DNA from: Candidatus Cloacimonadota bacterium
GTDB taxonomy: Bacteria > Cloacimonadota > Cloacimonadia > JGIOTU-2
Assembly (NCBI GenBank): GCA_049903315.1
Contig: JBNGBT010000004.1
Location: 64,001 to 128,000 of the forward strand
DNA: 64,000 nt
Direction of reading: 5' to 3'
Positions 30,001-36,000 of the stretch are shown piece after piece. The position numbers are program-made. Each line of letters starts with the position of its first letter. Position 1 is the first letter of the stretch.

Positions 30001-33000
30001 AATTGGTCTCGATTATACCTTCATGACAGCGAAAGCGGGAATATTCCGGAAAACAGACTCTTTTTCCACAAGCCTGAGGATACATTCTATGGATTCAATT
30101 ACGATGAAGTAAAGGGAGAGGATATTATCTATGCTTCTCTGAAGTTGCGTTATCTTTTACGGGATTTTGCAATAAGCGATCCGCGGAAGCAACTTTTCTG
30201 TGTTGCAAAGATCGGGATAGGGGATTTTGGGAATATCGACTCGATGGAAGATTTTTGGAATATTTTTGATAAGGGAGAGAAAGTTGGGTATTCTGTCGGC
30301 TTGGAAATGACCACAATATTTGGGCCGGTCAAGTTTGCTTATGAGCAGAGCAAGAAGCACAGTTTTTGGAATTTTTCTATAGGATATTCTTTCTAGTCCT
30401 TCACATCGCTTTCTAATTTATCACTTTTTTTGTTCTTTTGCCGGGAACTATATACGATCATTTCTCCGAGCAGGCCAAGTGAAATAAGCTGCACGCCGAC
30501 AACGATCAGAAGGATACCGAGAAAGAGCAGAGGTCTATTACTCAAACTCATACCAAAGAAAATTTTCTTCACCGCGAGCCATACACTAATTATAAATCCG
30601 ATAAGTGAGATGATCAACCCACTTGCCCCAAAGAGATAGAGAGGGCTTCTGCGATATTTTGTGATCATCGTCACAGTGAGCAGATCGAGGAAACCGCGTA
30701 TAAGACGACTTGCACCATACTTTGATCTTCCAAATTTTCGTTTATGATGAGTGACAACAATTTCAGTAACGGAAAATCCTTTTGACCACACTATAGCAGG
30801 AATATAGCGGTAAAGCTCTCCGTAAATATTGAGGGATTTTGCTGCGTCTCTGCGGTATGCTTTGTAACCGCAATTGTAATCGTGAAGGCGTAAATGGAAG
30901 ACCATAGACGTGATTAGGTTGAAAAATTTAGAGGGCCAGCGTTTCGTGATAGGATCTTTTCTTTTTTTCTTCCACCCGGAAACAAGATCATATCCTTCAT
31001 CGATCTTTTCGATAAAGCGAGGAATCTCTTTCGGGTCATCCTGAAGATCTGCATCCATGGTAAAAATGATCTCACCCTGTGCTTTATCAAATCCTGCTTG
31101 CAATGCTGCTGCTTTCCCAAAGTTTGTACGGAATCTGATTGGCTTGATATTGGCATCTTCTCGAGCGATCTCTTCTATAACAGTATATGAATTATCAGTA
31201 CTGCCATCATCAATAAAAATGATCTCGTACGTTGTGTTTGGAATGTTTTCTATGATCTCTTTGTGTAACACTTTAAGACTTTTTTCTTCATTAAAAACCG
31301 GGATCACAAAGGAAAGTTTCATGTTGTCTCCTTAAATAAATAAATATATGACAGTCATCGCCAGAGCAGATAGTATCGGAATGCTTATGTTATCATTGAT
31401 GTGAAGATCAACCGATTCAACCACAGCGGCGGTGAGTGCTCCGATAAGGATCATTATAACTGCAAGTTCTGGGTGTGCGCAGTCATAAGAGAATACGCGC
31501 TTAAGAAATAAAAAGTAGCTTAAAAGTCCCCACACAGAACACGCAAGAAAAGCACCGATCAATCCTTCAAGAGATTTTTTTGAGTGTATAAATTTTCTTC
31601 TCCCCATAGAAAGTCCAACGAAAGCTGCAAAAGTATCTCCTATTACCAGATAGGATATAGCAAGGAAAGCAATCTCTCTTGAAAAAACTGCAATTATCAC
31701 AACAGAAGCCGTGAGGAGGTATGACCCGCCGGTAAGCCTACTTACTTCAGAATCTCTGAGGTGAGAACCGAAAAGTTTCAGGAATTTGTGCCGATATTTT
31801 GGATTCTCAATTCTCGCAGAATCCCAGACCACTGATCCGATGGCAAAGGGCAGGAGTATTGCGATAGCAATGAGCTGGTTCTTAATCACAAAGTAATAGA
31901 GGACAGGAATAATGATCGCAAAGAGATGCGTGAGTTTCCTGTAAATTTCAATGTGACTAATTGGTTTGATTTCTGTTACCATCGTGTTCATCTCGTAAAA
32001 GGATAATTATTTGTCAAATATTTAAAATTGGGATACCTAACAAATGAAGTTATCTTATTCAAGAAATTACTTTATTTTATTCAGCAAGGATTGAATAGAA
32101 ATATTTTTTTGCTTTCATGATAGCGGTTTTAATATCATGACCCAGAGCAATGAATGCAGTTATCGCAGTTGAGATCAGGCAACCGGTACCGTGAATGCGT
32201 GATAAATGTGCATTCGGATTGGGAAAAACATCTATGTCAGTTCCTTTAATAAGATAATCTGTGATAATGTTTTTATCTTTAAGATGACCACCTTTGGCGA
32301 AGATATATGCATCATATTTTTTGGAAAGGAGTTTACTTGCTTTTATTAGTGCTGTTTCATTTGAGATAGTAATTTCACTCAATGATTCGAGTTCAGGAAC
32401 ATTTGGAGTGATAATGTCAGCAACTTTAAGGAATTTATTCTTCATATACAGGTAATTTTCTTTCTCGAGAAAGGAGTATTCGTCACTTGCTTTCATAATA
32501 GGATCGATCAGGATATTTTTTACTTCATGTTTTCTCAAATAATATGAAACGCATTCCATGATTTCTTTATTGAACACAAGTCCGATCTTCACAGAGGAAA
32601 TAGAATAATTTTCGAGGACTGTTTTCAGTTGAATTGCGACTTGTTCTATGGATAATGCTTTGGAAAAAAATACTTTTTTATCTGTTTGGGCAGTAATTCC
32701 GGTTACTACAGAAAGTCCACTTACTCCAAGATCATGAAACGTTCTGATGTCTCTTTGAATGCCGGCATTACCGGATGTATCACTCGCGGCAATTGTTAAA
32801 CAATAGGGTTTGAAGGTTTGAAAGTTTGAAGGTTTAAAAGTAGGATTGGTGGGCAGTTTGGAGTTTTTTTTTATCATAGTGATTTAAGATAATTGATGAG
32901 AGATTAAATTTTGCCCGAGAGTGCTTTGCATATAGAATTATATGAGTCAAATTCTTCTTCGGGGATATAGCCAATTCTGTGAGAAATGTAAAGCTGAGAT

Positions 33001-36000
33001 CTGAGTTCGCCGCAAGAACCTTTTGAAAAGTATAAGAATCTGATAAACTCTTTTTTTGTCTTTCTCTCGAAACCTTCTGCAATATTGGATGATATTGAGA
33101 GTGAACTTCTTCTCATTTGGTCCTTCAACGCAAAATCGTATTTGAATTTATCAGAGTTTGTGATTTGATACATTTCAACTGCAAGTTCTACAGCTTCTTT
33201 CCAGGTATCAATTTCCTCAATACACTTAAAAGTACTCATTTTTACCACCTTTCTTATATTTAACTTTTCAAACATTTAAACATTTAAACTTTCAAACTTT
33301 CTAACTCTTAAAGGTCTTTATCGCACATAATTTGCCACACATTGTGCACACATCTTCAGAGAAATCTTCACTTGCTTTGCGCCTTTTCTTCGCAAGGAGG
33401 GGATCAATTGAGATTTCGTATTGTCCTTCCCAATTAAACTCAGAACGATATTTTGAAATCTTATTATCTCTATCCATGCTTCCAGGTAAACCACAAGCAA
33501 TGTCAGCAGAATGGGCAGCTATTTTTGCGGCTATCACGCCTTCGCGCACATCATCTTTAGTAGGAAGGCAAAGATGCTCAGAAGGAGTAACATAACAGAG
33601 GAAATCTGCGCCGTAATAGGCTGCAAGAGTGCCACCTATCGCGCTGGTAATATGATCATACCCAGGAGCAATATCGGTTGTAATTGGTCCAAGTACATAG
33701 AAAGGTGCCCCATGGCAAAGTGATTTCTGCAAACGCACATTTGCTTCGATCTGATGAAGTGGTACATGCCCGGGACCTTCTATCATCGATTGCACATTTG
33801 CTTTCAATGCACGCTGCTGCAATTCCCCAAGAGTAATAAGTTCCTGAAACTGACCTGCATCGCTTGCATCAGCAAGGCATCCGGGTCTCAATCCGTCGCC
33901 AAGACTGAGAGTGACATCATACTTATAAGCGATTTCCAATAATCTGTCATAATATTCATAAAGTGGATTTTCTTTTTTGTGGATTTTCATCCATTTAAGA
34001 AGAAGAGAGCCACCCCTGCTTACCACACCGAGTACACGTGGTTGTTTTTTCATGGCATCAACTGCTTTTTCAGTAATACCGCAATGAACAGTGATATAAT
34101 CTACTCCTTCTTCGCACTGCTTTTCTATAGAATCAAAAAGCTGATCAACAGTCATTTCCGTGATATCATGATCTTTATCGAGAAGTTCTGCTGCAACTTG
34201 GTAGATAGGTACTGTGCCGACCATAATTGGAGATTGATCCAGGATTGCTTTGCGGATTGATGACAGATCTCCTCCTGTAGAGAGATCCATCACACTATCG
34301 GAGCCGTAGGCAACTGCTACTTTGAGCTTTTCCAGCTCCTCCTGCACATCAAAATGATCGGGAGAAGTCCCAATATTCGCATTTATCTTTGTACGGAGTT
34401 TATTCCCAATTCCTACAGGTTGAAATGTTCTTTTAATATTTTTGGGAATAACAATATGACCTGCAGCAATCTCATCCATAAGCCATTCTGCATCGCATTG
34501 TTCATTTTTGGCGACAAGTTGCATGTCCTCAGTAATAATTCCCTTTTTAGCCTGTTCTAATAATGTCATTGTACCTTCTTATTGCAAATTTATAAAAACT
34601 TAATATTTATAAAGAAAAGATTTTTTGCATCCAATCGCACACCTCATCCATTTTAAAGAGTTCATCGAAAAATTTCTGTTTGAATGCAAACGGAGTAAAC
34701 GTCTCTCGTGCAGCTTTTTCCGCTGCTATTTCGTATACTGAAAGGCCTGCAGCACAAGCTTTTCCATAATCCTTCTCAATGGCGCAGAAACAGCCGAGGA
34801 CAGATGCAGCCATACAGCCGGTACCAACGATCTGTCCCATTAGAGGATGTCCATTTTTGATAACATATACATCATCTTTCCACACAACAATATCCTCAGG
34901 AGCCGTGATGACGACCGCCGCTTTTTTGTCTTTTGCTAATTTATTGGCTACTTTCACGAGATCGAGCTGTGCGTCAACTGCTTCGACTCCTCGTGTAATA
35001 ACATCTTCGCCAGCGAGTTTTCCAATCTCAGAAGCATTTCCTTTGATAATATCTATGGAGCATTCGTCGAGGAGTTCAAACGCTTTTTTGTTCCGAAATG
35101 TGGTTGCTCCGACACCGACAGCATCGAGTACAACAGGAATTCCTTTTCCATTTGCTGCTTTAGCTGCGATCTTCATAGACTCGACTAATTCCGTGGTGAG
35201 TGTGCCTATGTTAAGAACCAGTGCGTTCGATAATCTTACCATATCAGCGACTTCTTCCGGAGCGTGTGCCATAATCGGTAAACCGCCTGTGAGTCGTACG
35301 ATGTTTGCACAATCCGCAATCGTTACCCAATTTGTGATATGATGAACTAGTGGATTCGTGTTCCTTATCTTTTGTAAAAGTTTAAAAAGCGGTAAATGGA
35401 GTTCTTTCATGGTCACCTCATTTCTCGTAATATTTCTCTATAAGATACTGTATCTTTTGTATTTCTTTTTCGGGATCACGAGCGGTCAGTATGGCTGAAA
35501 TAATTGCAACACCATGTGCCCCTGTTCCTAGAACACTCTCTAAATTATCCGCACTGATACCTCCAATGGCAACAATTGGGATTGAGGTATTGTCCACGAT
35601 TTCTTTAAGGTTGGTCAGTCCGATAGGAGGTGGGGTATCTGGTTTGGTTTGAGTAACAAATATAGGACCTACCCCGAGGTAATCTGCACCGAGTTTTTCA
35701 GCTTCAATAGATTCTTGCAGCGTCATTGTACTTACACCAATGATTTTATCTGGCATGTGCTTTTTCACTTCGAGATAGTTTTCATCATTCTGTCCTACAT
35801 GTATTCCATCTGCATGAGAGAAAAGAGCGACCTCAGGAATGTCATTAACAATGAAGCAAGTGGAGCTTTGTGATGTGAGTTTTTGCATTCTATGAGCAAT
35901 CTCTTTCATACTTTCCAGCGAAGCATCTTTATCGCGATATTGTATGATTGACACATTGTTCCGAATAGCCATTCGAGTGTATTTTTCAAACTCTCTTGTG

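Follow-up and report, generated by a model that had tools for sequence, protein, structure and literature searches.

A repeat-armed cassette between thiC and thiD

The question raised by this locus is what a small four-helix-bundle (FHB) gene enclosed by inverted repeats represents between two host genes, and how it came to be there. The locus lies in the window, meaning the whole 64,000-nucleotide stretch analysed, and all of its features are on the minus strand. The upstream host gene thiC (33301..34569) extends with its last codons and stop into the left arm (33259..33312), which consists of five to six degenerate tandem 8-mers and is purine-rich on the sense strand. A Shine-Dalgarno-like site read from the sequence (33245..33250) would serve the FHB gene (PF05635/TIGR02436; 32904..33239), whose 111-aa product matches PF05635 with an E value of 2e-34 and TIGR02436 above the cut-off. 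This copy is broken, as it ends at a premature TAA 10 codons ahead of the stop of its orthologues. The orthologous FHB stop and the thiD start form an ATGA overlap (32874..32877), a candidate coupling point at which translation of thiD appears to be coupled to the FHB stop. The downstream host gene thiD (32077..32877) starts 26 codons ahead of its conserved core, and the right arm (32805..32852), an array of inverted tandem 8-mers, lies within its coding sequence and is translated as an N-terminal extension. The same placement in the ThiD frame, with no later start, was found in 8/8 filled thiC|thiD loci. Over 37 nt of their tandem 8-mers (32805-32841 and 33272-33308) the two arms are 84% complementary, and they rank first among the inverted repeats of the 64-kb window. 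No terminator-like site was found in the window cassette.

Filled thiC|thiD junctions are also carried by another genus, and the junction is empty in G004 although the thiC tree makes this genome the sister of the source genome (G000; bootstrap 99). For these reasons the empty alleles look like losses, and a recent arrival fits the window cassette less well than shared presence with loss.

Architecture of the cassettes in the source genome

The preliminary description had listed seven FHB genes, each bracketed by a long inverted repeat resembling the stem of a ribosomal intervening sequence (IVS). The arm design was confirmed, but the number was revised: ten TIGR02436 matches in G000 fall into eight FHB loci, four of them broken, including the window copy. 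The inverted arms are likewise real, but they are tandem arrays of 6-9-nt words inverted relative to each other and not a unique-sequence stem. The six GxxExxY (PF13366) mini-genes were recovered as six loci. In 12 of these 14 loci the left arm was matched by its own right arm better than by that of any other locus. The extreme inverted-repeat scores reported for the FHB flanks were reproduced with 150 nt per side and our own ORF caller (2,411 ORFs; 99th percentile, 16), with values of 15-31 (97.9-100th percentile), and the GxxExxY loci again scored lower at 13-18 (92.9-99.4th percentile). All 14 loci are flanked by protein-coding genes and none matched an Rfam family, in agreement with the claim that no copy lies in an rRNA gene. 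Wedging between operon genes also held, with 13 of the 14 loci co-directional with their neighbours (one downstream neighbour was assessed by eye) and the same list of neighbours, which are functionally unrelated.

The arm words have a common purine-purine-pyrimidine core, above letter-shuffled controls. The coupling between arm word and protein was weak (Mantel r 0.12), which is a poor fit with strict word recognition. No position-by-position amino-acid-to-base code emerged among 91 dereplicated 7-mer elements, where all 14 top associations fell at one word position (G versus A) and tracked the deepest protein split.

Distribution across genomes and phyla

The repeat-armed design was found across phyla in 69 of 89 FHB and 49 of 67 GxxExxY cases, against 4-5% of controls. 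PF05635 matches range from 0 to 33 per genome, the maximum being in G012, and PF13366 matches reach 19. Co-directional neighbours flank 45 of the 49 junctions mapped, compared to a background of 61-69%; the 59/112 obtained in other phyla by a crude longest-ORF call is too noisy to weigh and unreliable in GC-rich DNA. No rRNA was found at 20 further loci picked because their ORF flanks were poor or their arms weak. On viral contigs, one FHB query gave no match and the GxxExxY alignment gave four loci, so that these narrow queries give little sign of phage as a vector. We found no published description of these arms or cassettes in the main texts of the mostly non-subscription literature searched.

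Movement, inversion and replacement

Whether presence and absence reflect mobility or repeated loss had been left undecided in the preliminary description. Our genome comparisons show the cassettes to be mobile, because copies 88-94% identical lie at different junctions and empty alleles of cassette junctions exist. The reported polymorphism of arm-bracketed cassettes in operon junctions is thereby borne out, while the absence at thiC|thiD itself still looks like loss. Pairs at least 72% identical at different junctions number 97 for FHB and 60 for GxxExxY (maximum 94%), and clades have one arm word in common; by the same comparisons, gene and arms are shown to move between junctions as a single unit. 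Young GxxExxY clades are 77-90% identical at several junctions. At five junctions, copies of one GxxExxY clade have a similar AGGAG-containing tail ahead of the host start, and some of these junctions also show boundary repeats of 11-13 nt (diverged, and seen by eye). A second umuD|umuC copy is present in G001.

The cassettes are further shown to flip between their arms, duplicate in tandem, and decay via internal deletion to gene-poor hairpins. At a convergent junction, identical flanks surround the cassette in one orientation in three genomes and in the other in four, with breakpoints at the arms; the tree behind this case has low bootstrap values (39-70). Gene-less spacers made up 5 of 832 in a strict scan, with a few more found by eye, and several appear by eye to keep gene-start remnants.

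The comparisons also point, though less firmly, to replacement of alleles at shared sites. Using silent divergence from codon alignments (thiC dN/dS was taken without the G009 rows), the cassette departed from both of its flanks in 17 of 74 pairs at the same site, compared to 7 of 79 for host segments (p 0.025; the pairs are not independent). Examples include a cassette with 20% divergence within 3% flanks and one with 8% within 40% flanks. However, thiC itself is mosaic, and because the genus recombines freely, same-site swaps may be passive.

Subsets associated with insertion sequences

One FHB subclade (AATATCC), the youngest, lies between ISL3-type ends that are flanked by 8-bp target duplications, and has no transposase of its own. 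Empty alleles confirm the duplication at four junctions, exactly at two, with a 1-nt indel of the empty allele at one and with mismatches at one. Its ends match those of an autonomous ISL3 in G005 (L250) at 28/37 and 20/24 nt, and the same ISL3-type ends are found on a 78-nt MITE that lacks arms. Both ends were present in only 5/87 FHB and 0/53 GxxExxY elements, and these counts rule out ISL3 as a general vehicle for most of them. ISL3 was found in 3 of 21 genomes; the window locus gave no profile match to such ends, and none were seen on the young GxxExxY clades. In G073, a segment of about 700 bp is common to 18 of 23 loci and runs into an IS982-like remnant in the two copies read.

Encoded proteins

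The dN/dS of cassette genes is 0.04-0.16, about 0.1, and by this measure selection on the encoded proteins is purifying. Such selection over a long residence at thiC|thiD would also fit a benefit to the host. The GxxExxY proteins possess invariant D, E-x-K and Q-x3-Y residues, their catalytic motif being intact, and their nearest Foldseek folds, none significant (best E 2.3e-3), were Cas4, lambda exonuclease and AddAB. For FHB, the Foldseek comparison gave matches to 2GSC and 2RLD and a weak one to Avd (TM 0.73, E 0.43).

Candidate explanations

We give about an even chance to the reading that these are promoterless DNA cassettes whose arms serve as ends for recombination or protein binding, and which are tolerated at sites where they restore translational coupling. 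Such mobile DNA would lack promoter and terminator and consist of one small gene between two inverted short-word arrays, encoding either an FHB protein of nucleic-acid-binding type or a GxxExxY PD-(D/E)XK nuclease, both with predicted activity. The cassettes persist mainly at co-directional junctions, where they take over the host stop or start and supply the downstream gene with a ribosome site or start codon of their own. One FHB subclade is carried by ISL3-type ends and another rides in an IS982-like element. The arms may act at the DNA level as single-strand hairpins or repeated protein-binding ends, on which FHB would bind and GxxExxY would nick or resect, and host recombination may insert or swap the cassette at short homologies around the stop, Shine-Dalgarno site and start. 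The window copy would be an old resident, lost repeatedly in relatives and truncated by now.

The IS-linked subsets suggest instead that gene and arms could be passive cargo without mobility of their own, spread via IS capture (ISL3, IS982 and others) or ordinary homologous recombination, with the IS ends eroding later. The target duplications of the youngest FHB clade, the resemblance of its ends to the autonomous ISL3 and the arm-less MITE, and the segment in G073 all agree with this; it is nevertheless unlikely, given the rarity of ISL3-type ends, their absence from young GxxExxY clades and the few genomes with ISL3, and it leaves purifying selection and the near-universal arms unexplained. 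It could also be that the protein benefits the host, or that its loss is harmful, through defence or translational-coupling regulation, with the arms as operator sites. The low dN/dS, the thiC|thiD cassette common to another genus and the apparent coupling of thiD to the FHB stop point that way, as do PF05635 genes within cas loci as far as the available text of PMC3936711 reports them, but junction insertion would make presence in cas operons equally expected. We see a slim chance for such domestication, since copy number varies so widely between genomes, neighbours are functionally unrelated, half of the FHB loci in G000 are no longer intact, and the thiC|thiD copy is gone from the closest relative.

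A further reading, in line with the preliminary description's comparison with the IVS stem and its conjecture of RNase III processing, is an mRNA version of the rRNA IVS, in which the two arms of a transcript would form a stem for RNase III to cut and FHB would bind the RNA. The family is that of the IVS ORF (PMC4990558), the relative Avd binds RNA according to the available text of 10.1101/2023.10.23.563531, an RNase III gene is present, and folding of the sense RNA gives a single closing stem (z -2.4). Yet the antisense folds equally well (z -2.3), and G·U against A·C on the sense strand of the arms gave no G·U excess in four sets (49:78, 182:162, 18:21 and 37:52), compared to 49:10 in terminator-like stems as positive control. 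Own-arm covariation was not found either, own against swapped orthologous arms giving 44:29, and 12:11 by sites. Selection on the arms as an RNA helix thus has no support from strand bias, arm swapping or folding of both strands. Because the right arm is in the thiD frame, a cut there would part thiD from its start codon. The analogy is not supported by these results, and we consider transcript processing quite improbable. The missing RNA-strand signature also speaks against retro-mobility, in which an Avd-like FHB would use a reverse transcriptase supplied in trans. The structural likeness to Avd and the variable length of the boundary repeats are in its favour, but reverse transcriptase was found in 7 of 21 genomes and not in the drafts of G000 or of FHB-rich G012, making it very improbable.

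Comparison with known systems

Free-standing homing endonuclease genes show same-site allele replacement, as the cassettes may do, and like the cassettes they insert close to the ends of genes and bring a replacement stop or start. Unlike them, near-identical cassette proteins occur in unrelated junctions, no long recognition domain is seen in the 125-aa GxxExxY nuclease, and the FHB fold is not that of a nuclease. DGRs, which include Avd, differ in that no reverse transcriptase was found in G000 and that the cassette neighbours are other host genes. The AATATCC subclade resembles what are termed mobile insertion cassettes (MICs), and likewise the MITEs and transporter IS described in the available text of PMC9330008, in its ISL3-type ends, 8-bp duplication and lack of a transposase; however, the arms are distinct from the IS ends and internal to them, and most cassettes, including that of the window, have no IS ends. 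REPIN/RAYT systems, as far as the available text of PMC3337134 describes them, similarly join pairs of inverted repeats in extragenic space to a small gene, and have derivatives from which the gene is missing. The cassettes differ in having PF05635 or PF13366 genes and no HUH tyrosine transposase, a short-period word for each clade, and a gene that is itself multicopy and mobile; there is no large population of gene-less doublets, and the gene-less forms look like deletion remnants.

Heptamer repeats of Xanthomonas, Nostoc and Beggiatoaceae are also 7-nt tandem arrays that lie close to starts and stops in the spacers of co-directional genes (PMC4692102, PMC4679880). In the available text of these papers their means of spread is not known and, unlike here, they are regarded as G-quadruplex or regulatory sites; that of PMC4679880 does not contain 'helix bundle', 'intervening' or 'S23'. 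Closest in protein are the ORF-bearing 23S rRNA IVS (S23p/PF05635) of Coxiella (PMC4990558) and of Leptospira, as cited there, a paper that leaves open the hypothesis of an ORF serving mobility. They have in common with the cassettes the protein family, the inverted-repeat enclosure and a sporadic, horizontally spread distribution. In contrast, the cassettes occupy protein-coding operon junctions (14/14 G000 loci; the G000 23S is not in the assembly), their arms are tandem 6-9-nt words without a G·U signature and sometimes translated, and a second, unrelated nuclease family uses the same layout.

A broader proposal, possible but doubtful, is that the cassettes are a separate class of minimal self-mobilising elements (~450 bp) in many phyla. 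Two unrelated one-domain proteins would each work on their own inverted arrays of short words, with excision, inversion and insertion at junctions of stop, Shine-Dalgarno site and start needing no transposase, integrase or reverse transcriptase. ORF-bearing rRNA IVS would then be elements of this class that had landed in 23S helices, and their remnants would account for many intergenic heptamer arrays. PF05635 and PF13366 are large families of unexplained function, which the cassettes present as cargo of moving, flipping repeat-armed DNA. Viewing them as cassettes offers a lead on the source of protein-coding inserts in ribosomal RNA and makes testable the spread of ORF-bearing rRNA IVS, the origin of intergenic heptamer arrays, and whether PF05635 and PF13366 genes inside cas and other operons are insertions rather than partners. 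It also accounts for low-complexity N-terminal extensions such as that on ThiD here.

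Repeat-armed mini-genes at the thiC-thiD junction and across the genome

We found that repeat-armed mini-gene cassettes are a real, widespread and mobile class. Each comprises a gene for a four-helix-bundle protein (FHB; PF05635/TIGR02436) or a GxxExxY protein of PD-(D/E)XK nuclease type (PF13366), set between two arms, which are tandem arrays of a short word with an inverted copy on the other side. The arm pair at the thiC-thiD junction topped the inverted-repeat list for the window. On the minus strand there, thiC (33301-34569), the upstream host gene, is directly followed by a degenerate 8-mer run, a ribosome-site-like hexamer and an FHB ORF of 111 aa (32904-33239; PF05635, TIGR02436), and the mirror-image 8-mer run forming the right arm (32805-32852) lies inside the downstream host gene thiD (32077-32877). 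The orthologous FHB stop overlaps the thiD start as ATGA; the ORF in the window ends 10 codons short of the orthologues' stop. No terminator-like site was found within this cassette. Another inverted repeat (40 nt, 73% complementary, arms 125 nt apart) was noted at 46394-46598.

The source genome, G000, contains ten TIGR02436 matches at eight loci and GxxExxY genes at six, and every locus has its own word upstream and the reverse complement of that word downstream (FHB words are 6-, 7- or 8-mers; GxxExxY words are mostly 9-mers). The preliminary description had proposed that these mini-genes are bracketed by their own inverted repeats, which was borne out: among 2,411 ORFs, FHB genes ranked in the 97.9-100th percentile for inverted flanks and GxxExxY genes in the 92.9-99.4th, and the arms paired best with their own partner at 12 of the 14 loci. 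Its six GxxExxY genes also stand, whereas its seven FHB genes become eight loci and its co-directional count of 12 in 13 becomes 13 in 14. The neighbours are unrelated host genes. Half of the FHB loci (4/8) are broken, and tandem duplications occur at two loci. Neither Rfam families in the 14 loci nor ISL3 and RT in G000 were found. RAYT/IS200-like, GIY-YIG-like and DUF559-like genes, families judged from sequence, were also high for flanking inverted repeats (C11:196k, C22:247k, C3:34k, C11:265k and C22:311k of G000).

With an inverted-arm score of at least 13 as the criterion, arms were present in 69 of the 89 scorable FHB elements in other phyla (of 95 elements identified among 101 loci) compared to 23 of 505 shifted windows, in 52/60 of a further FHB set, and in 49 of 67 scorable metagenomic GxxExxY loci (80 fetched) compared to 11 of 269. 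A clear word was seen in both arms of 159/231 FHB elements (122 7-mers, 32 8-mers, 4 9-mers and 1 6-mer). Coupling of the arm word to the FHB protein was weak (Mantel r 0.12, p 0.001), and no residue-to-base code between them was found beyond one split. GxxExxY genes were also noted on four viral contigs (L268-L271).

The predicted GxxExxY model (pLDDT 97) was nearest to the Cas4 protein SSO0001, lambda exonuclease and AddAB, none with E below 0.001, and its D...E-x-K and Q-x3-Y motif is intact. The predicted FHB model (pLDDT 92) matched 2GSC and 2RLD at a TM near 0.8, with a weak match to Avd (4DWL; TM 0.73, E 0.43). The activity ascribed to both proteins is putative. PF05635 genes are reported to occur in cas loci (PMC3936711) and to resemble Avd (PMC10053308), which binds RNA (10.1101/2023.10.23.563531), and PF13366 lacks a known function and was transferred multiple times (PMC3424549).

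Loss, replacement and movement of cassettes

Among ten congeneric genomes with thiC (genus Celaenobacter in the preliminary description, placed in Cloacimonadota), the cassette was found in seven, one frameshifted, and was missing in three, matching the polymorphism that the preliminary description stated for two tested sites. In other genera, the junction held a cassette with long arms in one, short arms but no gene in another, and was masked in a third. Because the empty G004 is the sister of G000 (bootstrap 99), absence at this site is read as loss. The right arm is read in frame as part of ThiD at all eight filled loci, with no start codon downstream of it; ThiD there starts 16-55 codons ahead of its conserved core, compared to 3-6 codons at five loci that lack this arm. 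Purifying selection acts on the FHB gene at this site: dN/dS was 0.04-0.16 in the unsaturated pairs, 10 of 21. In G001, G005 and G007, silent-site differences of 3-10% in the FHB gene compared to 21-37% in thiC and thiD suggest lateral replacement of the cassette gene, although thiC is also mosaic.

FHB genes were present in 24 and GxxExxY genes in 23 of 31 related genomes. The analysis drew on 100 regions centred on the highest-ranking of the matches listed (FHB matches total 241); in the resulting 87 FHB and 53 GxxExxY near-full elements, G000's included, clades have a common arm word and are spread over many junctions. Pairs at different junctions with at least 72% identity numbered 97 for FHB and 60 for GxxExxY (maximum 94%), and 45 of 49 mapped junctions were co-directional against a 61-69% background. 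At one convergent junction (L054, L056, L057, L060, L062, L072 and L081), the same flanks, IMP-dehydrogenase-like and radical-SAM-like as judged from sequence, surround the cassette in either orientation (three versus four genomes), with breakpoints at the arms; the two orientations are interleaved on trees with weak support. At shared sites, cassette silent divergence was at odds with both flanks in 17/74 pairs compared to 7/79 host segments (p 0.025; pairs related). A strict scan recorded gene-less arm pairs in 5 of 832 spacers and in none when shuffled, and since several retain gene-start remnants by eye, they are read as deletion products.

At L038, L042, L047 and L093, the left arm is the translated C-terminus of the upstream gene and the right arm a glycosyltransferase N-terminus; G012 in this set shows a tandem duplication of half the gene.

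Arms as DNA or RNA elements

The preliminary description likened the cassettes to the 23S rRNA intervening sequence (IVS) with its RNase III-processed stem. PMC4990558 describes the IVS as a 28-bp stem in helix 45 cut by RNase III and leaves its origin and mobility open, and 10.1101/2024.02.27.582315 reports IVP ORFs spread over rRNA insertion sites. The cassettes resemble an IVS and an RNase III gene is present in G000, but they fall outside the IVS class. On the sense strand, G·U versus A·C counts in four sets of arms were 49:78, 18:21, 182:162 and 37:52, compared to 49:10 in 70 terminator-like stems; in a covariation analysis, own arms paired no better than swapped orthologous arms, and sense and antisense strands folded alike. 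Because there is no G·U excess, no own-arm advantage and equal folding of the strands, and because the right arm is translated and a cassette is inverted at one junction, these sequence comparisons favour DNA-level arm ends over an RNase III substrate.

The cassettes also look like cargo-bearing MITEs, but an ISL3 derivative was seen only in one subclade, and they do not belong to REPIN/RAYT systems. In the best mechanism, to which we give about an even chance, the arms would serve as ends at the DNA level on which the encoded protein acts, with host recombination working alongside it in cassette movement. Searches of a literature collection that covers few subscription journals turned up no account of such arms or cassettes; the sources treat intergenic heptamer repeats (PMC4692102, PMC4679880), REPIN/RAYT (PMC3337134) and MITEs, transporter IS and mobile insertion cassettes (PMC9330008), with 10.1101/2021.01.26.428298 also cited.

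Vehicles and insertion boundaries

Defined ends lie outside the arms in the youngest FHB clade, with 8-bp duplications at four junctions relative to empty alleles, and these ends match an autonomous ISL3 of G005 at 28/37 and 20/24 nt. A 78-nt gene-less MITE with the same type of ends, without arms and with a near-perfect 8-bp duplication, was encountered upstream of tgt in G005 (L154) and at L065, where MITE and cassette stand in tandem. As a general vehicle, ISL3 was rejected: both ends were present in 5/87 FHB and 0/53 GxxExxY elements, and a profile search found no ISL3-type ends at the window locus. In the unrelated G073, a single contig, FHB matches number no fewer than 25, most of them nearly identical and many broken (L341, L349, L355, L358-L377); a segment of about 700 bp is common to 18 of 23 loci examined and runs into an IS982-like remnant in both copies read, and L358 is bounded by a 22-nt direct repeat.

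By eye, GxxExxY inserts often start at or just past the host stop; their 9-mer left arm is translated and forms the N-terminus of the insert's own protein, and a ribosome-site tail closes the insert ahead of the host start, with boundary repeats of 11-13 nt at some. These boundaries and repeats therefore suggest insertion at short homologies around stop, SD and start.

At the tgt-response-regulator junction of G007 (L155), a methyltransferase-like insert lies upstream of the right boundary used by GxxExxY in other genomes. A small palindromic repeat of CGCC...GGCG type was repeatedly inserted into cassette arms or genes (L073, L108, L112, L129, L164, L166 and L168). At L061, L077 and L140, an ISL3-ended cassette sits a few codons before the stop of a gyrase-subunit-like gene (gyrA-like 3' end); it brings in a replacement stop and leaves the original gene end stranded.
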